A stretch of DNA of 64,000 bases from an uncultured Verrucomicrobiae bacterium (GCA_963786375.1 CAWAYP010000005.1:80036-144035); one strand, 5' to 3'. Counted from the first letter of the stretch, positions 285-41,552 are shown. Numbers and translations: made by a program. The notes: generated by a model not told the origin, from the letters alone.

Positions 285-1311
285 TAGAGCATTTTCTATT
301 TAGATAGACGCATATCGGGCATGACGAAAGAAGCCCCGGCAATGTTGAGCTGAGAAGGAGTCCAGGGCCGTGGCCAAGGCTGAATGAAGCTCACCCAAGG
401 TCCGCGCCGCTGCGTGGCGCAGGTGTGCCTTGAGTTTGGCGAAAGCTAGTTCAATGGGATTGAGATCAGGGCTGTAAGGCGGCAGGTAGCGAATGCCAAC
501 TCCGCGAGCCGAGAGCAACGGGCCGATCTTTTGGATTTTGTGAGTGGAAAGGTTGTCGAGGATGAGCGTGTCGCCTGCACGCAGTTGCGGACCAAGCACC
601 TGCTCAAGATAAACCGTGAACACCTCGGCATCGACGGGGCCTTCGACCAAAAAGGGGGCTTCAACGCTTTCCTGGCGCAAAGCGGCAATGAAGGTGGAGC
701 TTTGCCAGTGACCGTGCGGGATGGTGCTGAGGCAACGTTGGCCAATCGGACAGCGCCCGTAACCGCGGGCCAGCTTGGTGTTCAGGCCGGTCTCATCGAT
801 AAACACCAGTTGGCGAACATCCCAGTCGGGCTGTTGTCTGCGCCAAAGTCTCCGAGCGGCTTTAACGTCCGGCCGATCTTGCTCGGCGGCGCGCGTCGTT
901 TTTTTTATAGCTCAAGCCCAGTTGCTCTAGCCGATGCCACAAAGCGGTGATGCCAATGGAAACATGCAACTGCTCCAGACACCGCTTTTGGAGTTCGTTG
1001 AGCGTCAGATCGGCCTGGGCTGCAATCCAGCGGCGCAGCGTTCGGTCATGCTTTTCCAAGCGGGAGCGCCGGTAACCGCCGATCTTTTGGGGTCGGCACT
1101 GGCCCGTTAGATGGTGCTGCTTCCAAAAACGCTCCACGCTTTTGCGGCTGACGCCAAAACGCTGGCAAACGTCGCCGGTGCCCTCCCCGCGCTCTCGCGC
1201 GGCGATGATCCGCTGTCGTAAGTCCTGGCTCAAAGGCCGCATAGTTCCCTTTTCATGAAAAGAGAATAGCACCAATGGCCAAATGCGTCTATCTAAATAG
1301 AAAATACTCTA
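285..1311 (-). mobile_element. IS630/Tc1-mariner-family insertion sequence (~1.03 kb) with TA target-site duplication
   Basis: Terminal inverted repeats 285-313 (tagagcattttctatttagatagacgcat) and 1283-1311 (atgcgtctatctaaatagaaaatactcta) are 28/29 complementary. The outermost TA is present on both sides. The element encloses HTH and DDE transposase frames. Confidence 0.9.
300..1242 (-). CDS. IS630-family transposase in two frames (HTH part 862-1242, DDE part 300 to ~905)
   Basis: N-terminal part reads MRPLSQDLRQRIIAARERGEG (HTH). C-terminal part reads VFIDETGLNTKLARGYGR...ILDNLSTHK...YLPPYSPDLNPIE (DDE_3 hallmarks). The frames join only through a +1 shift at an A8 run (T8 on the + strand, 899-906). 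Confidence 0.85.
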
Positions 1312-2475: not shown

Positions 2476-2503
2476 TTGCATCGCCGGTTGAATTTGTTAT
2501 ATT
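2476..2503 (+). promoter_or_regulatory. sigma70-type promoter of the str operon (TTGCAT-16 nt-TATATT)
   Basis: -35 at 2476-2481, -10 at 2498-2503, A/T-rich upstream tract, then CCGCGCTCCGTTTC. The same architecture recurs at 5801-5842 and 11303-11344. Confidence 0.6.
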
Positions 2504-2562
2504 CCGCGCTCCGTTTCTCCGACCTCAATGGCCGGTGATGTTTACAGCGAATTTAACGCAAA

Positions 2563-3030: not shown

Positions 3031-3504
3031 ATGTCCCGCAGACGACAAGCAACCAGACGGCCGGTGCCCAAGGACGGAAAATTCCAAAGCGCGCTGGTAT
3101 CACGGCTGGTCAACACCGTGATGATATGCGGCAAGAAGAGCACCGCCCAGCGGATTGTCTATGGGGCCTTTGACACCATCTCGGAGAAAAATCCGGCCAG
3201 CAACCCGGTGGAAATTTTGCAGCGCGCGGTGGACAACGCCAAGCCGCGCATCGAGACCAAGGCCCGGCGCGTCGGCGGCGCAACGTATCAGGTGCCGCTG
3301 GAAGTGCCGTCGGACCGGCAGGCATCGCTGGCGTTGCGCTGGATTGTGGATTTTGCGGACGCCCGCAAGGGCATGCCCATGCGCGAGGCGCTGGCGGCGG
3401 AAATTCTGGAAGCCTATCAAGGGCAGGGGAACGCCATCCGCAAGCGCGACGAGGTGCATAAGATGGCGCAGGCCAACAAGGCGTTTGCGCATTTCCGCTG
3501 GTAG
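3031..3504 (+). CDS. rpsG: 30S ribosomal protein S7
   Basis: 157 aa; ...GKKSTAQRIVYGAFD...ARRVGGATYQVPLEV...AFAHFRW; follows rpsL. Confidence 0.97.
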   Translation: MSRRRQATRRPVPKDGKFQSALVSRLVNTVMICGKKSTAQRIVYGAFDTISEKNPASNPVEILQRAVDNAKPRIETKARRVGGATYQVPLEVPSDRQASLALRWIVDFADARKGMPMREALAAEILEAYQGQGNAIRKRDEVHKMAQANKAFAHFRW

Positions 3505-3631: not shown

Positions 3632-5777
3632 ATGGAACGCACGCGCAACATCGGCATCGCCGCGCACATTGACGCGGGCAAGACGACCACGACCGAGCGC
3701 ATCCTGTTTTACACCGGCCTCATCCACAAGATTGGCGACGTGGACGACGGCAACACCGTGACCGACTGGATGGAACAGGAACGCGAGCGCGGCATCACCA
3801 TCACCTCCGCCGCCGTCACCTGCTTCTGGACGCAAAAACACAACAAGCCGGGCGAAGACGAAATTTACAAGGCGTTCAAGGACGTGCCGCATCGCATCAA
3901 CATCATTGACACGCCCGGTCACGTGGATTTCACGGCGGAAGTGGAGCGCTCCATGCGCGTGCTGGACGGCGCGGTGGCGGTGTTCTGCGGCGTGGCGGGC
4001 GTGCAGCCGCAATCGGAAACCGTCTGGCGCCAGGCCACCAAGTACAAGGTGCCGCGCATCGCGTTCGTCAACAAGATGGACCGCACCGGCGCGAATTTTG
4101 AAAATGCGCTGAACGACATGCGCAACAAACTCAAGGCGTATGCGTATCCCGTTTTCCTGCCCATCGGCGCGGAAGACAAGTTTGCCGGCGTCATTGACGT
4201 GGTGAACCAGAAGGCCATCGTCTGGGGGCCGGGCGACGTCGCCAATGAAGGCTTGAATTACGAGGTGAAGGAAATTCCCGCCGAGCACAAGGAACGCGCG
4301 CCAGGCCGCGCTGGCGGAATTGATTGACGCGGTTTCCAACAAGGACGACGCGATTGCCGAATCTGGTGCTGGAAGAAAAGCCGATCACGCCGCCGGAACT
4401 CAAGGCCGCCATCCGCCGGCTGACCTGCAAGATTGAACTGGTTCCCGTGCTGTGCGGTTCGGCCTTCAAAAAGAAGGGCGTGCAGCCGCTGATTGACGCC
4501 GTGGTGGATTATCTGCCCGGCCCGCTGGACGTGCCCGGCGCCGAAGGCATTGAGCCGGGCACGGAAAACAAGGTGTCGGTGGAAACCAGCGACAGCAACA
4601 AGTTTTGCTCGCTGGCGTTCAAGCTGTGGACCGATCCTTACGCGGGCAAGCTGGTGTTCTTCCGCGTTTATTCCGGCCAGCTTAAAAAGGGCGACACCAT
4701 TTACAATCCGCGCACGCGCAAGCGCGAACGCGTCAGCCGCCTGATGATCATTCAGGGCAGCGAACGCAAGGACATCACCGAGGTCTATGCCGGCGACATC
4801 GCCGCGCTGGTCGGCCTGCGCAACATCACCACCGGCGACACGCTGTGCGATGAAGATTTCGACGTGACGCTCGAACCGCCGACGTTCCCCGAGCCGGTCA
4901 TCAGCATGGCCGTCGAACCGAAGACGAAACAGGACCGCGACAAGATGTCCGAGGGCCTGCAACGGCTCGCGGAGGAAGACCCGACCTTCCGCTGTTTCAC
5001 CAACGAGGAGACCGGCCAGCTCATCATCGCGGGCATGGGCGAGTTGCATCTGGAAATCATCATGCGACCGGCTGAAGCGCGAGTTCAAGGTGGACGCCAA
5101 CACCGGCGCGCCGCAGATCGCCTATCGCGAAACCATCACCAAGGCGGCGGACGGCGAAGGCAAGTTCATCCGCCAATCCGGCGGTCGCGGCCAATACGGC
5201 CACGCCTGTGTCCAGATTCAGCCGAACGAAAAGGGCAAGGGCGTCGAGATCGAAAACGAAATCGTCGGCGGCGCGATTCCCAAGGAATACATCCCGGCGG
5301 TCATTGACGGCATCGAGGAAGCCATCAAGGGCGGCGTCTATGCCGGTTATCAGGTCATTGACATCAAGGTGCAGGTCGTGGACGGCACGTTCCACGAAGT
5401 GGACTCCAACGAACTGGCGTTCAAGATGGCGGGCATTTTTGCGCTCAAGGACGCCTTCAAGAAAGCCGGGCCGATTTTGCTCGAACCCATCATGAAAGTG
5501 GAATGCACCACGCCCGACGAATATCAGGGCGATCTGCATCGGCGACATCACCCGCCGGCGCGGGCACATCATCAACATCGAGGCCAAGCAGGGCCAGACG
5601 GTGGTCAACGCCAATGTGCCGCTGGCCGAAATGTTCGGTTACGCCACGGCCATCCGCTCGCTTTCGAAGGGCCGCGCCTCGTATTCGATGGAGCCGTTGA
5701 CGTTCGAGCAGGTGCCGAACAGCGTCCTGACCACGATTTTGGATCAGGCGGCGAAGAAACCGGCGGCGCGGACATAG
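3632..5777 (+). pseudogene. fusA: elongation factor G, frame-disrupted as given (four +1 insertions)
   Basis: Three ORF pieces (3632-4327, 4324-5307, 5090-5818) join into a colinear EF-G: [14 protein letters not shown]...CGSAFKKKGVQPLIDAV...[30 protein letters not shown]...GRASYSMEP. This requires skipping one base near 4301, 4362, 5063-5065 and 5534-5537. The true stop is TAG at 5775-5777. Confidence 0.9.
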
Positions 5778-5800
5778 ATGGGGTTGCCGCCAAAAACATG

Positions 5801-5828
5801 TTGCGCGGAGCCGCTTAATTGCTATACT
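5801..5828 (+). promoter_or_regulatory. sigma70-type promoter upstream of rpsJ (TTGCGC-16 nt-TATACT)
   Basis: -35 at 5801-5806, -10 at 5823-5828, followed by CCGCGTCCGCTTTC, similar to the rpsL and rplB promoters. Confidence 0.5.
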
Positions 5829-5894
5829 CCGCGTCCGCTTTCAAAGATTGAAGCGGCAAATTAATTAAACCATTAACAGACAATTGTTCTTTGT

Positions 5895-6202
5895 ATGGCT
5901 GCACAACGCATTCGAATTCGTCTTAAGGCCTATGACCATCGGGTCATAGACCAGTCCGCGCGCGAAATCGCGGACACCGTCAAACGCACCGGCGCGCGCG
6001 TCGCCGGGCCCATCCCGCTGCCGACCCGCATCGAGCGGTTCACCGTGCAGCGCTCGCCGCACTCGGACAAGAAGTCGCAGGAAACTTTCGAGCAACGCAC
6101 CCACAAGCGGCTGATTGACATCCTCGATCCGACCGCCAAGACCGTGGACGAATTGAAGAAACTCAATCTCCCGCCGGCGTGGACATCACCATCAAGATTT
6201 AA
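5895..6202 (+). pseudogene. rpsJ: 30S ribosomal protein S10, frame-disrupted near its 3' end (-1)
   Basis: [25 protein letters not shown]...RLIDILDPT. The C-terminus AGVDITIKI-stop (6200-6202) is reached only if one base is added at ~6171-6173. Otherwise the ORF runs on into rplC. Confidence 0.9.
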
Positions 6203-6213
6203 GGAGAACGACC

Positions 6214-6920
6214 ATGCCACTCGGACTTTTAGGAAAAAAACTCGGCACACCCGCGTCTATAACGCCAGCGGGGTGTTGATCCCGGTGACGGTCGTGCTCG
6301 CCGGCCCCAACCGCGTGCTGCAGGTCAAGACGCAGGCCGGCAAGGACGGCTACAACGCCGTGCAACTCGGTTTCGACGACCAGAAGGAGCAGCGCCTCAC
6401 CAAGCCGTTGCTCGGCCATATCAAAAAGCAAAACGGCGCGGCGGTGAAACGCATCAAGGAATTCCGCAATTTTTCGAAGGAAGTGAAGCCCGGCGACGTC
6501 GTCGGCCCGACGCTGTTCGCGCCCGGCGATTTTGTGGACGCCATCGGCGTCACCAAAGGCCGCGGTTTTGAAGGTGTCGTGAAGCGCCACTGTTTTGCCG
6601 GCGGTCGATTCGACGCACGGCGCACAAAGGCTGGCATCGCCGCGTCGGCGCCATCGGCCAGCGCCTGTTCCCCGGCACGGTCCTGCGCGGCTTCAAAATG
6701 CCCGGCCACATGGGCCAGGTCCGGCGCACCACGCAGAACCTTGAAGTCATCCAGGTGCGCGAGGCGGACAATCTTTTGCTCATCAAAGGCGCGATTCCCG
6801 GCGCGGAAGGCGATTACGTCGTCATCCGCGAATCCAAGAAACGTCCGAAGGGCTGGAAGCCGCCGGTGAGCCTCGCGCCCGATGAAACGGAAGGGCGCCG
6901 AGGCCGAAGCCAAGAAATAA
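6214..6920 (+). pseudogene. rplC: 50S ribosomal protein L3, frame-disrupted (at least 2-4 indels)
   Basis: ATG at 6214 gives [12 protein letters not shown] frame change at ~6246 leads to [17 protein letters not shown]...[16 protein letters not shown] net frame change 0 to 2 within 6604-6625 leads to [18 protein letters not shown]...[17 protein letters not shown]. The end is either 6949 or, after a further shift at 6870-6890, KRKGAEAEAKK-stop at 6918-6920. Confidence 0.85.
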
Positions 6921-6932
6921 TTAATGCGTGCC

Positions 6933-7560
6933 ATGAAAATTGCCATTAAAAATATCGAAGGAAAAGACCAGGGCGAACTGGAAGTGAAGTTCCCGCTGGT
7001 TGAAGACGGAAAAGGCACGCAGGCCGTCCATGACGCGGTCGTCGCGTACCGGGCGGCGCAACGCAGCGGCACCGCCAGCACCAAGAACGTCGGCGAAGTT
7101 TCCGGCACGAACAAAAAACCGTGGCGGCAAAAAGGCACCGGCCGCGCGCGCGCCGGTTCATTCCAATCGCCGTTGTGGGTCGGCGGCGGCGTGGTTTTCG
7201 GTCCCCGCCCGCGCGATTTCAGCAAGAAAATTTCCAAGAAGACCCGCGCGCTGGCGTTGCGCAAGGCGTTGAGCGAACGTCTCAAGGCCGGCGACGTGGT
7301 GGTGGTGGACGATTTGAAACTTGCTTCGCCGAAGACGAAGGAATTCGTCGGGCTTGATGTCCGCGCTGGAATTGAAGGGCACGACGCTGATTGTCTCATC
7401 GGAGACGGACAAAAATCTGACGCTGGCGTCGCGCAACCTCCCCAGCGTCGCGCTGACGACGAGCGATTCGCTGAACACTTACGACGTGTTGCGGCCCGAC
7501 AAGCTGCTCTTCACGAAGAGCGCGTTTGAAAAAGTCGAAGCCCGTCTGACCAAGGAATAA
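6933..7560 (+). pseudogene. rplD: 50S ribosomal protein L4, frame-disrupted (+1 near 7353-7357)
   Basis: MKIAIKNIEGKDQGE...KKPWRQKGTGRARAGS...KTKEFVGL in frame 0 continues as MSALELKGTTLIVSSE...EKVEARLTKE in frame 1. Confidence 0.9.
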
Positions 7561-7561
7561 C

Positions 7562-7843
7562 ATGAACGCTTTTGAAATCATCAAGACCGTCCGCCTGACG
7601 GAAAAGGGCACGCGCCAGGGCGAGAAGTACAATCAGTACACCGTCGTGGCCGACCGCCGCGCGAACAAGACGCAAATCCGCCAGGCCGTGCAGGAATTGT
7701 TCAAGGTCAAGGTGACGAAGGTCAACACGCTGAACGTGCGTGGCAAGTTCCGCCGCCAGCGCACGACCCAGGCCGGCCGGGCGCCCGATTGGAAGAAGGC
7801 CATCGTCACGCTGAAGGACGGCGACAAGATTGTTTTGACGTAA
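7562..7843 (+). CDS. rplW: 50S ribosomal protein L23
   Basis: 93 aa; MNAFEIIKTVRLTEKGT...IRQAVQELFKVKV; intact. Confidence 0.95.
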   Translation: MNAFEIIKTVRLTEKGTRQGEKYNQYTVVADRRANKTQIRQAVQELFKVKVTKVNTLNVRGKFRRQRTTQAGRAPDWKKAIVTLKDGDKIVLT

Positions 7844-7846
7844 TTT

Positions 7847-7902
7847 GTAGCGGCGCTCTGTGAGCGTCGCTGAAATTTCCGGCGGTCACAGACCGCCGCT
7901 AC
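7847..7902. repeat. REP-like palindromic element (family copy 1)
   Basis: GTAGCGGCGCTCTGTGAGCGTCGC (7847-7870) faces GGCGGTCACAGACCGCCGCTAC (7881-7902). Related copies at 27192-27267 and 51989-52046. Confidence 0.7.
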
Positions 7903-7904
7903 AT

Positions 7905-7938
7905 GGCGCGGAGTGAAAATTCACTCCGCGCCGTTTTT
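7905..7938 (+). terminator. strong intrinsic terminator directly after rplW
   Basis: Perfect 12-bp stem GGCGCGGAGTGA / TCACTCCGCGCC, AAAT loop, then GTTTTT. Confidence 0.8.
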
Positions 7939-8029
7939 GCTTACAAACCAGCCCTTCGGGCTTGGACCGCCTTTGTCCATGCCGGCGTGCGAGGATTTGA
8001 CACGGCCGGAAATTTGGTTCAATTAAAGT

Positions 8030-9298
8030 TTGCCCGTGAATGCCAAAGCACCCATTCGCATCCTGCACGTGGACGGCGACAGCTTCTTCGCCAGTTGCGA
8101 GATCGCCCTGAATCCCCAATTGCAGGAACGCCCGGTCTGGGTCGGCGGCGGGCGGCGCGGCGACGGCATCGTTATCGCGGCCAATCGCGCGGCCAAAAAA
8201 TTCGGCGTCAAGACCGGCATGGCGTGCTTCGAGGCGAAGCGGCTTTGTCCCAAGGGAGTTTTGTGCCGTCCGCAGTACGACAAATACCGCCGCCTGTCGC
8301 AGGAGATGTTCCGCATTTTGGAAGAGTATTCGCCGACGCTCGTGCCCATCTCGATTGATGAAGGCTTTCTGGATTTTACAACGATGGACCGGCATGTCTG
8401 GCGAAACACGTCGCCGGAAAACTATGTGAAGGAAATCTGCCGGCGGATTTTGCAGGAAGTGGGATTACCCGTGTCCGCCGGCTTGGCGAATTCTTCCCAA
8501 CTGGCCAAGCTCGCGACGGACGCCGCCAAGCCCGGGTTCATCGAGATTCCGTCCGGCTCGGAAAGGGAATTTTTAAAGGACCGTTCCGTGCGCGAACTTT
8601 CCGGCATTGGCAAAAACCGGCAGCGCGCGCTGGCCTCGCTCGGCGCGGAGACCTTTGGTCACGTGGCGAAATTGCCGTCGCCGTTGCTCCGGCAGAAGTT
8701 TGGGATTTGGGGCCAGCAACTCTGGCTGTTCGCCAACGGCCTCTGGAGTGAGCCTTTGCTCCTCGAAGTGAAGGACCGCACGACCATTTCCAGCAACACC
8801 ACGCTGCCTTACGACGAGCCGGATTATGAGGCGGCGCTGACGTTTACGTTGAGCGAGGCGACGCGGCTGGTCGGCCAGTTGCGCCGCGAGCAGTTGCAGG
8901 CCCGCGAGCTTGGTCTGACGGTCCGGTTCACCGATTTTAGCGAAGTCAACGGCGGCCATCGCTTTCGCGAGCCGCAATTTCAAAATTCAATCATCAATAC
9001 GGTTTTTGAAAATGTCTTTTGTGAACTCATGGGCAAACAATTCAAACCTGTCCGGCAAATCCGCATTGCGTTTTGGAACCTCGCGCGGCTGGACACGCAG
9101 CCGACGCTGTGGGGGCGCACCGCGGCGGAACGCTGGGGCGCGCTTGACGACGCAACGCATGCGCTCAACGGCCGGTTCGGTCCGACGGCGATCATGACCG
9201 GCGCGCAACTGGCCTTGCGCGAACTGGAGGACGCCTTTAAAAATCCGAAGGCAAAATGTCCATTCGTGCCGCAGCGGGAAATGGTGAAAAAACTCTAG
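8030..9298 (+). CDS. dinB: Y-family DNA polymerase (Pol IV / DinB-like)
   Basis: ILHVDGDSFFASCE (catalytic D-x-D), SIDEGFLD motif, little-finger-length C-terminus; 422 aa; TTG or GTG start. Confidence 0.85.
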   Translation: MPVNAKAPIRILHVDGDSFFASCEIALNPQLQERPVWVGGGRRGDGIVIAANRAAKKFGVKTGMACFEAKRLCPKGVLCRPQYDKYRRLSQEMFRILEEYSPTLVPISIDEGFLDFTTMDRHVWRNTSPENYVKEICRRILQEVGLPVSAGLANSSQLAKLATDAAKPGFIEIPSGSEREFLKDRSVRELSGIGKNRQRALASLGAETFGHVAKLPSPLLRQKFGIWGQQLWLFANGLWSEPLLLEVKDRTTISSNTTLPYDEPDYEAALTFTLSEATRLVGQLRREQLQARELGLTVRFTDFSEVNGGHRFREPQFQNSIINTVFENVFCELMGKQFKPVRQIRIAFWNLARLDTQPTLWGRTAAERWGALDDATHALNGRFGPTAIMTGAQLALRELEDAFKNPKAKCPFVPQREMVKKL

Positions 9299-9522
9299 GG
9301 CACGGACGCCGATCCGCTGGCCCACAAGGGCGAATGGGAAAAACGATTGGCGAAGGTCAGCAAACAGTCCCAATTCCAGCATTGATCGGGGTGGAGTGCG
9401 GGTTCCCGGATTCGCAGCAGGTTTGTTGATCATATTGATTTGCAGAGCGGCTGCCGTTTTGCAAGGGTATGGCGTTGTGCAAAACGCACGGGGATTTCAG
9501 TTTTTGAGCGGTAGCTTCAAAT

Positions 9523-10842
9523 ATGCCTGAGAACGATCTGGATGGTGGTGAAGACCGCAGCCAAGCGAAGGCGGAAGGATTGGGGCGGGGCGGGACGGAT
9601 GGTTTTTTTCCCGTGTCCCGGATGTTGTGGATAACCTGTCTGGTCCAATTTGTCCTGCTGCTGGCGCTGGCGTTTGCGCTCTGGCATGCTCCCAAACCTG
9701 ATTCCGACCGTCCCATTGCCCCGTCCTCGCCGGCGTCCGTTTCATCCGATGTCTATTTCAAGGGCAATCCCGGCCCGTGGGGACAACTGGAATACGCGCG
9801 CATCCAACTCAAGCCGTCCGATGAATTCATTCCCACCGACGCGCATTGCTTCGGTCCGACGCGCTGGTTTTTTGAGGGTTATACGCGTCCGGCGTTGAGC
9901 CATTTTTTCGATCAATGCGGACTGACGGCGTCGCAACTGGCCGGATTGAAGGATCCGGCCATATGGCAGGACCAACCCAGCGGCATTGAAGTCATGCCGC
10001 CGGATGATCTGGTCTTGGGGCTGGCTGAACCGGCGCGTGAGCGGATTTATTCCGTGCTGGCCCGGAGCCGGTTGAACATATTGCATTTGTGGCCGTTCAA
10101 ATCCCGTGAAGGCGGGGTTGATGAATGGTTTGGGCAAAGCGGCTTGAGCGCCGGGACCCTGGCGTTGTTGAGGCAGCTGACCTATTCGCGGGGCGGGCGC
10201 CTTTGCTTTTCTGATCTGTCCATTGTGTATCCGCGCATTTCCACAAGTGAAGAACGGCGGCGATTGATCAAGACGCTGGCCAGCACATCCGCGTTGCTGG
10301 TGAAATTACAGGTCAAGCCGGACAGTGATGTTGCGGCGCTCGCCGATTACTGGTCCAAGGGCCAGCGCACCAAGGATATTCAGGCCCTGCTTGAATCCCT
10401 GAAAAATATTCCCGGCGGGATGACGATTGACGTGACCCATTTGCTTCCTCCATTTGCCCGCAAACGCCTTTATACCTTTCCCGTACCGCCGCTGAACAGT
10501 GCCAAAGTGGGCTGGCCCGATTGCAATTGGACGGCCATGAATTTTTTCAACGACCCCCCGGACGACCGTTTTTATGATTCCGACGTCTGGATGAATGAGC
10601 TGCATCAGAACTACACTGAGGTGAAGCAGGCGACCTTTGGTGATTTGATTGTTTTCTTCCGGCCCGATGGGTTTCCGATCCACATGGTGGTTTTCATTGC
10701 CGACGACATTGTCTTCACCAAAAATGGCAGCAGCAGCTGGCATCCCTGGACGCTTATGAAATGGGACGATCTGATGGCGGACTACACCCTGGACTATGTG
10801 CCGGCCTACATCGTTTTCCATCCGAAAGAACAGACGGAGTAG
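9523..10842 (+). CDS. membrane-anchored hypothetical protein with possible C-terminal papain-like (NlpC/P60-type) Cys-His fold
   Basis: TM helix MLWITCLVQFVLLLALAFALW (alternative start at 9622). C-terminal pattern DCNWTAMNFF, then ~50 aa, then GDLIVFF..PIHMVVFIADDIVFTKNG resembles the C...GDLxFF...H core of NlpC/P60 enzymes. Confidence 0.5.
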   Translation: MPENDLDGGEDRSQAKAEGLGRGGTDGFFPVSRMLWITCLVQFVLLLALAFALWHAPKPDSDRPIAPSSPASVSSDVYFKGNPGPWGQLEYARIQLKPSDEFIPTDAHCFGPTRWFFEGYTRPALSHFFDQCGLTASQLAGLKDPAIWQDQPSGIEVMPPDDLVLGLAEPARERIYSVLARSRLNILHLWPFKSREGGVDEWFGQSGLSAGTLALLRQLTYSRGGRLCFSDLSIVYPRISTSEERRRLIKTLASTSALLVKLQVKPDSDVAALADYWSKGQRTKDIQALLESLKNIPGGMTIDVTHLLPPFARKRLYTFPVPPLNSAKVGWPDCNWTAMNFFNDPPDDRFYDSDVWMNELHQNYTEVKQATFGDLIVFFRPDGFPIHMVVFIADDIVFTKNGSSSWHPWTLMKWDDLMADYTLDYVPAYIVFHPKEQTE

Positions 10843-10989
10843 GATTCAAGCTGTGGCGGGAACAAACCAAGCCCTGCGCGGGACAAAATCCAAGAGTCAT
10901 TTGTCCTGGTCGTTCAAGATCGGCAAGCGGATTCCTGGTTGACCAAATCCCGAACGCACTGCCTGGAAGCGTGTCAAAATAACGGTGTT

Positions 10990-11163
10990 ATGAAGTTGAG
11001 CTTGGGACAATTGCTGTTTCCGCGCATCCCAGAGTACCAGCGCCGCCACCAACTGCGCCTTTTGTTGGCGTCTTTGATGGCGGGTCTGATCATTTCAGGA
11101 ATCATTGTCGTTGTGATGCTCATGAGCGATCAGATGACGAAACATTGGCTGGCCAGACTTTGA
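10990..11163 (+). CDS. small single-pass membrane protein (57 aa), hypothetical
   Basis: MKLSLGQLL...LLLASLMAGLIISGIIVVVMLM hydrophobic span; no recognisable family. Confidence 0.35.
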   Translation: MKLSLGQLLFPRIPEYQRRHQLRLLLASLMAGLIISGIIVVVMLMSDQMTKHWLARL

Positions 11164-11302
11164 TTGATTGAAGGACAGGGTGGATGATTGATTGAGCGCG
11201 CACGGATGGTTCGGTTAAGGTGGCGGAAAACCAGCGAAATTCGCGTTTGGATTTGAGGGGAAACACCTATTTTTAGACATCTAAAATTCCTCAAAAAAAC
11301 TC

Positions 11303-11330
11303 TTGCATCGAAAGGGGCTTTTGATAGTTT
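11303..11330 (+). promoter_or_regulatory. promoter re-initiating the distal S10 operon at rplB (TTGCAT-16 nt-TAGTTT)
   Basis: CTTGCATCG, 16-17 nt spacer, -10, then CTTCGCTCCGTTTC. Near copy of the rpsL promoter (CTTGCATCG...TATATTCCGCGCTCCGTTTC). A-rich UP-like tract at 11285-11300. Confidence 0.6.
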
Positions 11331-11492
11331 CTTCGCTCCGTTTCGCTCGGAAGACAGGCTCTTGTTGCGCACCAGCGCGGCCAGTCACCTTGGGAAAATG
11401 GACAGCATGTTTGCAGACCGATAACTGATTCCCTGCCGGGACAGGAATGATGGCCTGCCGACTTCAAAGTTGCTGCTGAAACTTTTGATTTT

Positions 11493-12347
11493 ATGCCAGT
11501 TAAGACATTTAGACCGCTAACGCCGTCTCTGCGCTACGTCACGTACGCGGATTTCAGCGAGATTACGAAGACGAAGCCCGAAAAGGGGCTGGTCGTCACG
11601 CGGAAGAAGACCGGTGGCCGCAACGCCTATGGTCGCGTGACGGCGCGCGGTATTGGCGGCGGGCATAAACAGAAGATCCGGCTCGTGGATTTCAAGCGCA
11701 ACAAGCACGGTGTGGAGGCGACGGTCGCGGCGATTGAGTACGATCCGATGCGTTCGGCGCGGCTGGCCTTGCTGCAATACCAGGACGGCGAAAAGAGTTA
11801 CATCATAGCGCCGGCGGGGATTAAAGTCGGCGGCACCATTTCCAGCGGGCCAACGGCCCCGCCGGAAATCGGCAATGCGCTGCCGCTCAAGGCGATTCCG
11901 GTCGGCCTGGCGATTCACAACATCGAACTGACGCCGGGTCGCGGCGGGCAGGTGGTGCGTTCAGCGGGCGGCGCGGCGACGTTGATGTCGCGGGACGAAG
12001 GTTACGCGCAGATTCGTCTGCCCTCGGGTGAAATCCGGCGGATCAACGAGGAGTGCTACGCAACGATTGGCCAGGTGGGCAACGCGGAGCATGAGAACGT
12101 GATTTTGGGCAAGGCGGGCCGTTCGCGGCATCGCGGCATTCGCGGCATCACGCGCGGCGTGGCGCGGAATCCGGTTGACCATCCGAATGGCGGCGGCGCT
12201 GGCAAGTCCAAGGGCGGCGGCGGCTGGCAGCAATTGACTTCGCCGTGGGGCTTTGTCGCGAAGGGCGGCAAAACACGCCCCAAATACAAGCACTCAAACC
12301 GTTTCATTATTGTGCGCCGCAACGGTCTGCCGATGAAGATCAAATAA
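11493..12347 (+). CDS. rplB: 50S ribosomal protein L2
   Basis: 284 aa; [14 protein letters not shown]...[13 protein letters not shown]...[10 protein letters not shown]. Confidence 0.97.
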
Positions 12348-12351
12348 TTTT

Positions 12352-12633
12352 ATGGGACGCTCGATTAAAAAAGGTCCGTTTATTGATTTCCACCTGCTGG
12401 ACAAAATCCAGAAGGCGAAGGACACGAAGTCCAAGACGCCGATCAAGACGTGGTCGCGGCGTTCGATGATCACGCCGGATTTCGTCGGGCTGACGTTCAC
12501 CGTGCATAACGGCAAGGTTTTTAATCCGGTGTTTGTGACGGAAAACATGGTCGGCCACCGGCTCGGAGAATTTTCCCCGACGCGCGTGTTCAAGAAGCAC
12601 GGCGCACACACGGCCAAGGCGGAGGCGAAATAA
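12352..12633 (+). CDS. rpsS: 30S ribosomal protein S19
   Basis: [16 protein letters not shown]...[29 protein letters not shown]. Confidence 0.97.
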
Positions 12634-12634
12634 C

Positions 12635-12967
12635 ATGGAAGTTTTCGCGATCTTGAAAAATGTGCCGATGTCCGCGCAAAAGATGCGCGAGGTGGTGCGG
12701 CAGATCCAGGGGCTGCCGGCCTTGCAGGCGCAGGCGGTGCTGCAGGTGGTTCCGCGCAAAGGGGCGCGGCTGGTGGCCAAGACGCTCCGGTCGGCCATCG
12801 CCAACGCGGAGAACAACAACAAACTCAAGCCGGAAAGTTTGCGCATCAAGGAAGCCGTCGCCGGCACGGCGATGACCATCAAACGTTTCACCCCCAAAGC
12901 GCGCGGTTCCGCCGGACCAATCCTCAAACGACGTTGTCACATCAAAATCACCTTGTCAGACGAATAG
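12635..12967 (+). CDS. rplV: 50S ribosomal protein L22
   Basis: 110 aa; ...[14 protein letters not shown]...[14 protein letters not shown]...[17 protein letters not shown]. Confidence 0.95.
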
Positions 12968-12968
12968 T

Positions 12969-13649
12969 ATGGGCCAAAAAACAAATCCAATCGGTCTGCG
13001 TGTCGGCGTCAATCATGACTGGCGCTCGAAGTGGTTCGCCGGCAAGAAGGAATTCGGCCCGCTGCTCAACGAGGACCGGCAAATCCGCGAATTGCTCAAA
13101 AAGAAACTTGAAACGGCGTCCGTGCCGAAAATTTTGATTGAGCGCGCGACGAACCGCTGCCGGGTGACGATTCTAACCGCCCGCCCGGGCGTGGTCATTG
13201 GCCGCAAAGGCTCGGAAATTGACAAGCTCAAGGAAGAATTGAGCCGCATGACGGGCAAGGAAGTCTATGTGGACATTGTCGAGGTGAAGACGCCGGAGCT
13301 CGACGCGCAGCTGGTGGCGGAAAATGTCGCGCTGCAATTGGAGCGTCGCGTGTCGTTCCGGCGCGCGATGAAAAAGGCGTTGCAGACCGCGAAGGATTTT
13401 GGCGCGGAAGGCATCAAGATTCGTTGCGCGGGCCGGTTGGGCGGCGCCGAGCTGGCGCGCGTCGAACAATATCACTGGGGCCGCGTGCCGTTGCACACGT
13501 TGCGCGCGAACATTGATTACGGTTTTGCCGAGGCGCACACCCTTTATGGCAAGCTCGGCGTCAAATGCTGGATTTGCCGGGGCGAAAACAAGCCGCAGAA
13601 GAAGGAACAGCCGGGACCGCCGGCGGTCGAAGCGGTGCCGGTCAAATGA
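12969..13649 (+). CDS. rpsC: 30S ribosomal protein S3
   Basis: [24 protein letters not shown]...; KH domain; 226 aa. Confidence 0.97.
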
Positions 13650-40679: not shown

Positions 40680-41552
40680 CCTGAAACATTAAGTCCCCGC
40701 CTGGCCTTTCGGCCAGACAGGGACAAATGGGGGATGGGAGTGCGCCAGGCTCTCTTTCCCGGACCGGCATTAGGCGCGCACCCTCGCGGGGGGCTGCCGG
40801 TTTCCCGACGCCATTCTCCACGGCAAGCGGAGTTTTCGGCCTCGTAGCAGGGCCGTCCAGCGCCTTGCGGCCGCTGAATTTCGAGTGAGGCTTTTCAGCT
40901 CGCTTCGGCTGATGGTTGCGCCACCGGCCTGCGAACCAGGTCAAGACACGCCTGCAGTTTATGTGTTCGCGTCTTGACCGTTTAGCGCCGGGTCAGCCGC
41001 CGCTTTTGGCGGCGCGTTCGCCCGGTGCCACGGGTCTCGCCTCTTCACTCTCAGGTTACTTTTTGCTCACAGTCCAGCGACGCCGTTTTTAACATCGCCA
41101 GCTTTTGGAAGTTCTTAACGCGACCTGCCCAGTCGGCGTGTCCTTCCCGGCGCCGGCGCTCCCTTTGTCCGCCTTTCGGCGGGTTTCATTGGGCGGTCTC
41201 ATTTTATTGAATCCGCCAGAGTCGCCCGCACCGTGCTGATGCACAGTAGCAACCGCATACCCTCTGGGTAACTGCGATTCACTCAGGCTCGAAACCGGCC
41301 TGAGCTACTTGACCCGGCTCGGAGCGGTTTCTAAGTCGCTCCTGGCCGCCAAGTCCCTCATTCGCATTTGGCATTAGCGAACATGCCAGAGGAACTGGTG
41401 AATGCTGCCTCCCGCCGAACCTTTCGATCCGGTTTCCGAGGGACCGGGCCAACCAGCCTAACCCGACCTTTCCCCAGTCGCCTGGGATTATCCTGGAAAC
41501 AAACAGAACAATCTTTCGACCGTTTCTGCCTGCTTCGTTCTTTCAATGAACT
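40680..41552 (-). ncRNA. candidate large structured RNA of unknown family (~0.85-1 kb)
   Basis: No convincing ORF. At least 10 perfect or near-perfect local helices. Three loops read GAAA on the minus strand, and three helices need G-U pairs that would be A-C mismatches on the plus strand. Promoter-like element upstream, terminator-like element downstream. Confidence 0.35.

Follow-up and report, generated by a model that had tools for sequence, protein, structure and literature searches.

In Escherichia coli the S10 ribosomal protein (r-protein) operon is transcribed as one unit, with L4 acting on the S10 leader as its regulator. The genes for L23 (rplW) and L2 (rplB) are among the stablest bacterial gene pairs; out of 113 bacterial genomes, more than 110 have them in an operon (PMC2837039). 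In concatenated translation operons which have come apart, a small insertion was followed by full disconnection in the descendants, with no signs of distant horizontal transfer (Brandis 2021, PMC8046335); the breaks described, in Gammaproteobacteria and Bacilli, for the most part separate one operon from the next, or fall at rplL|rsmC. For Alphaproteobacteria, a candidate L2 leader has been described that precedes rplB-rpsS-rplV-rpsC (Eckert and Weinberg 2020, PMC7247131). The locus analyzed here resides in a 64,000-nucleotide (nt) stretch of DNA, hereafter the window, from an uncultured Verrucomicrobiae bacterium (GCA_963786375.1, CAWAYP010000005.1:80036-144035; contig C5 of genome G000). The metagenome-assembled genome (MAG) measures 3.04 Mb, in 17 contigs, with a G+C content of 0.575. 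In this DNA the S10 operon is split between rplW and rplB, and the novelty is a lineage-wide boundary module found at this junction, together with its new leader RNA.

As in the canonical S10 operon, the genes rpsJ-rplC-rplD-rplW-rplB-rpsS-rplV-rpsC are kept in the same order and orientation, on one strand, from 5895 to 13649 (Pfam searches on open reading frames, ORFs). The row is not contiguous. The genes rplW (7562-7843, + strand; Pfam Ribosomal_L23, 1.7e-29) and rplB (11493-12347, + strand; Ribosomal_L2_N and L2_C), both present in one copy in the genome, are separated by 3649 nt, containing a strong terminator and a conserved promoter. In contrast to the canonical operon, a terminator cuts after rplW, closing a unit rpsJ-rplC-rplD-rplW, the distal genes have a promoter, and a different leader is found at rplB, at the head of a unit rplB-rpsS-rplV-rpsC and following genes, and not at rpsJ. 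Unlike the breaks described by Brandis, this one falls inside the S10 operon, in Verrucomicrobiota, and is accompanied by a seemingly newly evolved terminator-promoter-leader module. We estimate at about 80% the probability that the border between two transcription units at rplW|rplB is ancient and common to the lineage, the distal unit having its own promoter and leader, and does not result from a recent insertion. The split and its component features had been listed in an initial annotation of the window, and were found in place by Pfam searches, folding and sequence inspection.

The relatives used for comparison are Verrucomicrobiota/Verrucomicrobiae MAGs from soil and peat. In 40 of them rplW and rplB were searched for, and up to 15 kb of DNA 3' of rplW and ~4 kb 5' of rplB were retrieved. 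Outside the order to which the organism belongs, all 80 Verrucomicrobiota genomes sampled (54 genera) have the two genes side by side, and six families of the order keep them adjacent. Within the genus, rplW never directly precedes rplB in any genome yielding both genes. Seven genomes of the genus, G000 included, have the two genes in tandem, 2.5-5.5 kb apart. The genes are divergent and 17 kb apart in G014, in reversed order in G005, rplB being 28 kb upstream of rplW, on opposite strands 98 kb apart in G023, and at a distance of 332 kb in G011. Elsewhere in the genus rplW and rplB are on separate contigs, as they are in many of the order's other families. Since relatives have the same break, the split is an old lineage trait, and the view that a 3.65-kb insert was acquired by this particular genome fails on synteny. 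The companion claim, that expression of the distal genes was rewired and not merely interrupted, is borne out by relatives in which rplB is preceded by the same promoter and leader although it sits on another contig, on the other strand or as far as 332 kb away.

The DNA between rplW and rplB hosts dinB, which encodes a Y-family DNA polymerase, and orf439, which encodes a protein of 439 amino acids (aa). G016 (DATJYM010000176.1), an independent assembly, also has rplW-dinB-orf439-rplB in this order; dinB-orf439-rplB-rpsS recurs in a SPRUCE MAG, and rplW-dinB-...-rplB in five further genomes. The assembly is rich in errors just upstream (fusA, rpsJ and rplC frames are broken at ~4.3-6.9 kb), which may raise the suspicion that unrelated pieces were joined within 7.85-11.5 kb at the assembly or binning step. 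Yet the same gene order is found in independent assemblies, which therefore exclude an assembly join, and an artefact of this sort is extremely improbable.

The genus shows both gaps of 2.5-5.5 kb and full separation of the two genes, a pattern which fits the two-step course, small insertion and then full disconnection, reported by Brandis (PMC8046335). In the scenario proposed, the S10 operon would be divided, in a large part of one Verrucomicrobiae order, into a terminated rpsJ-rplC-rplD-rplW unit and an rplB-led unit, the latter driven by its own strong promoter (UP-like tract, TTGC at -35, extended -10, CGCTCC) and provided with a conserved leader. The module would have arisen in place, in a form similar to that seen in G077 (see below), before cargo and rearrangements built up. 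Because the two halves would be autonomous, the space between terminator and promoter would tolerate both.

The left side of the boundary is marked by an intrinsic terminator (7903-7938, + strand), a 14-pair stem followed by TTTTT (-27.2 kcal/mol, z = -7.0), and the notion that the rplW unit is terminated here is upheld by folding. G+C-rich hairpins with a T-run, homologous or analogous to this one, are found ~20-60 nt after rplW in nearly all split genomes; in the genus the terminator is visibly homologous, featuring GGCGCGGAGTG, a loop, and then CACTCCGCGCC. In G077 rplW is followed by the terminator, 80 nt, the promoter, the leader and rplB, and this cargo-free module spans 290 nt. The G000 cargo sits exactly between the terminator and the rplB promoter. 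A palindrome resembling repetitive extragenic palindromic (REP) sequences (7846-7903; 24-nt arms, 88% complementary; -37.3 kcal/mol, z = -6.5) separates the stop codon of rplW from the terminator. Some twelve partial copies of this REP-like family are spread over nine contigs (C1, C3, C5, C6, C9, C10, C12, C14 and C16). An identical 59-nt palindrome is found at the same site, between rplW and its terminator, in G002, and is missing in most relatives.

The rplB promoter (11283-11330, + strand) is made up of an A-rich UP-like tract (11283-11299), a -35 hexamer TTGCAT (11303-11308) and, after a 16-nt spacer, an extended -10 TGaTAGTTT (11322-11330); CGCTCCGTTTC is found 3 nt past the -10. A simple sigma-70 scan did not flag this promoter, and the call is supported by conservation among relatives. 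In 24 of 24 aligned genomes, representing 7 families, the same elements are kept upstream of rplB wherever the gene sits: the A-rich tract AAAATTCTTCAAAAAA, TTGC at -35, the extended -10 TnTGATAnTTT, CGCTCC and the leader. That rplB has a promoter and a leader of its own, as annotated at first, is thus supported. Many relatives have the same promoter at an rplB unlinked from rplW, and there this promoter must suffice.

The layout and the spacing of -35, spacer, -10 and CGCTCCGTTTC are the same at the rpsL promoter (2476-2520, + strand; TTGCAT, 16 nt, TAnnTT, 3 nt), and the 11-mer CGCTCCGTTTC is found in the 3.04-Mb genome at these two promoters only. The likeness to the rpsL promoter reported in the initial annotation therefore stands, the alleged duplication does not. 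The CGCTCC box past the -10 is found also at the rplM promoter (TGATAGTTTTTTCGCTCC) and at a promoter upstream of rnpA, presumably the rpmH-rnpA promoter, and a variant is found before rpsJ. Accordingly, the rplB promoter is a member of a promoter class, not a copy of the rpsL promoter. The box found at the rpsL, rplB and rplM promoters, at the promoter upstream of rnpA and, as a variant, at rpsJ conforms to (C/T)CGC(T/G)CC, and is located 2-4 nt past the -10 (window 2476-2520, 5801-5842 and 11303-11344; genome C10:87403, - strand, and C10:107031, + strand). It may be a lineage-specific discriminator, or a start-site signal for growth-rate control.

The rplB leader, or 5' untranslated region (11336-11492, + strand), is ~157 nt long, and ~125-160 nt in the aligned relatives. 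It starts with the CGCTCC box, followed by a variable 5' hairpin carrying an extra segment of ~40 nt in G000, G017, G004 and G016. CUCC residues of the box pair with a downstream GGAC, and compensatory changes are found in G003 and G005. The core of the leader (11413-11458, + strand) is an irregular hairpin, P1-P2-P3, whose stems are supported by covariation and whose internal loops, CCGAUAAC and GGAWUGAUGG, do not vary. P1 is formed by GCAG/CUGC and CCG/UGG, P2 by CUG/CAG, P3 by UCCC/GGGA. The additional helix P0, CAGCA/UGCUG, is nearly invariant, hence silent for covariation, in a set of 24 sequences, and features few double changes in a model-fitted alignment of 44. In the former set 90% of the cells are paired, against 22-53% when the partner is slid, and double-change cells are 33, against 12.4 in shuffles (0 of 500 reach the observed figure). 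In the 44-sequence alignment (A4), which was fitted to the covariance model R1 described below and is biased toward the structure of the model, 92.5% of the cells are paired, against 22-55% when slid, and both partners have changed in 14 of 19 pairs; shuffles give 8.5, and none of the 500 reaches the observed figures. By itself, RNAalifold recovers the structure in both alignments, with the same 14 pairs in A4. A reading of the internal loop as a kink-turn was discarded on inspection, the required G-A being missing on the bulged strand.

A further hairpin, P4 (11466-11486, + strand), is located ~7-27 nt before the rplB AUG. The stem varies: the genus has AAAGUU/AACUUU, most families outside it have CCAAG/CUUGG, and a single family (L103) has CCGGG/CUCGG. 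The loop features a conserved GCUGA, complementary to an upstream CAGC, and both CAGC and GCUG are nearly invariant. In G014 (L073) and G019 (L034) the P4 region is displaced by an extra perfect hairpin, TTGCAA-4 nt-TTGCAA, found in the last 30 nt before the rplB ATG. No Shine-Dalgarno sequence precedes rplB in the interval 11475-11492, or in any aligned relative; a conserved U-rich stretch, UUUUGAUUUUAUG, is found instead. At one locus (L080, G038:C17:17689-18534) the rplB frame is open for 630 aa, extending upstream through the leader with no stop codon, a feature probably meaningless in G+C-rich DNA.

The covariance model R1, built from the leader, was run on 201 genomes of the order and on 300 genomes from elsewhere in the phylum. 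Exactly one match per genome was found in 77 of the 201 genomes (45 of 118 genera), none in the 300. All of the 20 matches sampled, from as many families, end at the rplB start codon. Among the matches listed, 34 genomes of the order have joined rplW-rplB genes, and none of these carries the leader; conversely, none of the 77 leader-bearing genomes has a joined rplW-rplB match among those listed. Rfam yielded no match overlapping 11300-11500, either at E <= 10 or at the gathering score, and no Rfam r-protein leader reached the gathering score anywhere in the window. The leader is a previously undescribed structured RNA, conserved, covarying and exclusively linked to rplB. Among published RNAs, its closest analogue is the candidate L2 leader of Alphaproteobacteria. 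As here, it is a structured RNA placed directly 5' of rplB in the S10 row, restricted to a lineage and present once per genome. It is nonetheless a different RNA, found in another lineage and featuring other motifs, whereas the leader described here has no match in Rfam, and would open a transcript distinct from that of rplW, behind a promoter of its own.

Invariant loops set between freely covarying stems typify sites that bind a specific ligand, as opposed to generic stabilising hairpins. The leader may represent a new class of r-protein leaders, born as the S10 operon came apart in a large soil clade of Verrucomicrobiae; a protein of the rplB unit would bind the loops and take over feedback. 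We hold this tentatively, at slightly worse than even odds. L2, encoded by the nearest gene, would be the first candidate ligand, the others being S19, L22, S3, L16, L29 and S17. By binding CCGAUAAC and GGAWUGAUGG, the invariant internal loops, this protein would stabilise the fold; in the bound state the GCUGA loop of P4 would pair with CAGC, upstream of it, and the start region would be occluded. A protein-bound leader would lower translation or mRNA stability, and the protein would assume the feedback role held in E. coli by L4 over the whole operon. Were this true, the locus would provide an example, from a non-model phylum, of ribosome-synthesis feedback re-invented after re-partition of an operon. 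The leader is in any case a new candidate regulatory RNA, found in 77 genomes of 45 genera, strongly covarying and without an Rfam family. The case also shows that rplW and rplB can be separated harmlessly. A terminator, a promoter of the r-protein class and a new leader would free the distal half, and the junction would become permissive for cargo and rearrangement.

The cargo varies among relatives. The dinB gene (8030-9298, + strand) encodes both the catalytic core (Pfam IMS, 2.4e-44) and the little-finger domain (IMS_C, 1.4e-10), and the N-terminal motif LHVDGDSFFASCE is present. The NCBIfam match to DNA polymerase IV (5e-68) is below the curated cut-offs (best 229 bits vs. 381; PRK02406, 213 vs. 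256), and the predicted product is to be described as a DinB-like Y-family polymerase. The gene follows rplW in 12 of the 24 genomes of the genus in which rplW was found. It is followed in turn by orf439 in G000, G016, G012 and G018, by patatin-like and flavodoxin-like genes in G017, by DoxX, pirin and LysR genes in G019, and by nothing in G004; in these seven close relatives the cargo differs, dinB being the sole constant, and the commonest cargo member at the boundary. A second Y-family polymerase gene, interrupted by one in-frame TGA, resides at C15:3385-3804 (- strand; L002; IMS, 3e-40).

Two putative control elements precede dinB. A promoter-like site (7997-8024, + strand; TTGACA, 16 nt, TCAATT) is conserved in G017, G004, G002 and G019. 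The palindrome TTGGACCGCCTTTGTCCA (7962-7979) is a candidate operator; TTGGACAGCCTTTGTCC is conserved upstream of dinB in most of the genus, and TTGGACA-N5-TGTCC is kept there in L033, L034, L038, L043, L045, L053 and L061. Three perfect copies of GGACA-N5-TGTCC are found elsewhere in the genome (C5:173595, C6:68626 and C10:268410), none beside obvious SOS genes. The LexA motif of Verrucomicrobia is TGTTC-N4-GAACA, and TTGGACA-N5-TGTCC does not match it. Located behind the terminator, dinB is probably a separate unit, regulated on its own. The idea of a mutagenic polymerase embedded in the most highly expressed operon needs correction, as dinB looks insulated and endowed with its own control elements.

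The product of orf439 (9523-10842, + strand) is membrane-anchored, with an N-terminal helix at residues 31-55, and belongs to a widespread uncharacterised Verrucomicrobiota family. It was initially called an orphan, a label at odds with the at least 363 clusters of homologues, all unnamed. No match was found in Pfam, NLPC_P60 included, or in NCBIfam. In the AlphaFold2 model (pLDDT 85.5) the C-terminal part may correspond to an NlpC/P60-like domain; the top Foldseek matches in the PDB are all NlpC/P60 endopeptidases, the similarity being weak (E = 0.008-0.4, target TM-score 0.3-0.5). In homologues C334 is invariant, and H387 nearly so. The 57-aa ORF at 10990-11163 (+ strand), formerly reported as a membrane peptide, is unsupported as a gene: no tblastn match was found in any relative, including those sharing dinB-orf439-rplB, and no credible family match was obtained.

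A different origin may be imagined for the cargo, namely the recent acquisition of a 3.65-kb segment (dinB, orf439 and orf57) by an intact S10 operon, expression of the distal genes being restored by a copy of the rpsL promoter. The similar layout of the two promoters and the 11-mer CGCTCCGTTTC unique to them would fit, as would the REP-like mobile repeat on the left edge and the fall in G+C to 0.49-0.52 over 10.5-11.5 kb. The low-G+C stretch, however, corresponds to the non-coding promoter region, and the CGCTCC box is found also at the rplM and rpmH promoters. Codon usage is native, the distance being 0.29 for dinB and 0.40 for orf439, against a genome mean of 0.45 +/- 0.11. No integrase or transposase domains were found by Pfam among the cargo, and no flanking direct repeats above chance surround it; the cargo does not qualify as a mobile element or genomic island, and nothing in its composition speaks for the foreign origin first envisaged. 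Break, terminator, promoter and leader are moreover common to the genus and to many families, and recent acquisition is very unlikely.

Some results weigh against the reading of the junction as an ancient boundary with a protein-sensing leader. Sequence and conservation are the basis on which transcription is predicted to end at 7938 and to begin near 11336. An RplB-only tree is too weak to sustain a single origin of the split (9 label changes, 6 of 67 inner branches well supported), and the idea of a single origin was dropped, the tree being poorly resolved. No terminator-like site was found on the + strand from orf439 to the rplB promoter, and read-through from dinB/orf439 into rplB is therefore possible in G000. 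The leader is absent from two split families, G025 (L083) and G031 (L082), in which rplW and rplB are on different contigs; rplB may be preceded there by another leader, or by one that has diverged greatly. The bias of alignment A4 has been mentioned. The single-sequence fold of the leader is ordinary in stability (z = -0.9), and the conserved loop motifs are absent, by a comparison of sequence only, from the rRNA operon of the genome (C3, - strand; 16S and 23S), which therefore offers no mimicry clue to the protein ligand. A likeness to helix 71 of E. coli 23S rRNA (AAUGAUGGCC) was dropped, the sequence being missing from the 23S rRNA of this organism.

The lack of a terminator-like site after orf439, the location of all genes from rplW to rplB on the + strand and the persistence of dinB behind rplW in roughly half the genus are also compatible with a leaky boundary. 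In such case termination after rplW would be partial, rplB would be transcribed in tandem genomes mostly by read-through, the internal promoter would be supplementary, and dinB would be co-expressed. A terminator with 14 pairs, -27 kcal/mol and T5 is strong, however, rplB is unlinked from rplW and has the same promoter in many relatives, and conserved elements of its own, a palindrome and a promoter-like site, precede dinB. This reading of the boundary is unlikely. Alternatively, the boundary may be real, and the leader constitutive and not protein-sensing, serving to protect the 5' end from RNases, as a standby site or an enhancer of translation in a lineage that lacks clear Shine-Dalgarno sequences, or as an RNA processing site. 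The ordinary stability of the fold, the failure to find rRNA mimicry and the U-rich stretch, free of Shine-Dalgarno sequences, which precedes the AUG in all relatives are in keeping with a constitutive role. The invariance of CCGAUAAC and GGAWUGAUGG amid freely covarying stems, and the presence of the element once per genome, at rplB only, argue against it, and we consider such a role somewhat unlikely. The autonomous rplB unit, with its own promoter and leader, remains the preferred interpretation of the locus.

The genes preceding rplW are rpsL (2563-2991), rpsG (3031-3504), fusA (3632-5818), rpsJ and rplC (5895-6869), and rplD (6924-7529). The fusA gene is broken into four frame segments, many single-base frame breaks being found in the ~4.3-6.9 kb region. 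The rpsJ frame is lost near the 3' end and the rplC frame shifts twice, so that both genes read as one 324-aa ORF. Frames are intact in rplD, rplW, dinB, orf439 and rplB. As fusA, rpsJ and rplC are essential genes present in single copy, the breaks are most likely indel errors, in a poorly polished part of a long-read assembly. An IS630-type transposase gene, in two pieces, is found at the left end of the window (300-1275, - strand), as a helix-turn-helix ORF (862-1275) and a DDE_3 ORF (300-806). A full-length MISL RNA (Rfam RF03079) resides at 40737-41493 (- strand), and scores 601 bits against a gathering score of 274.6.

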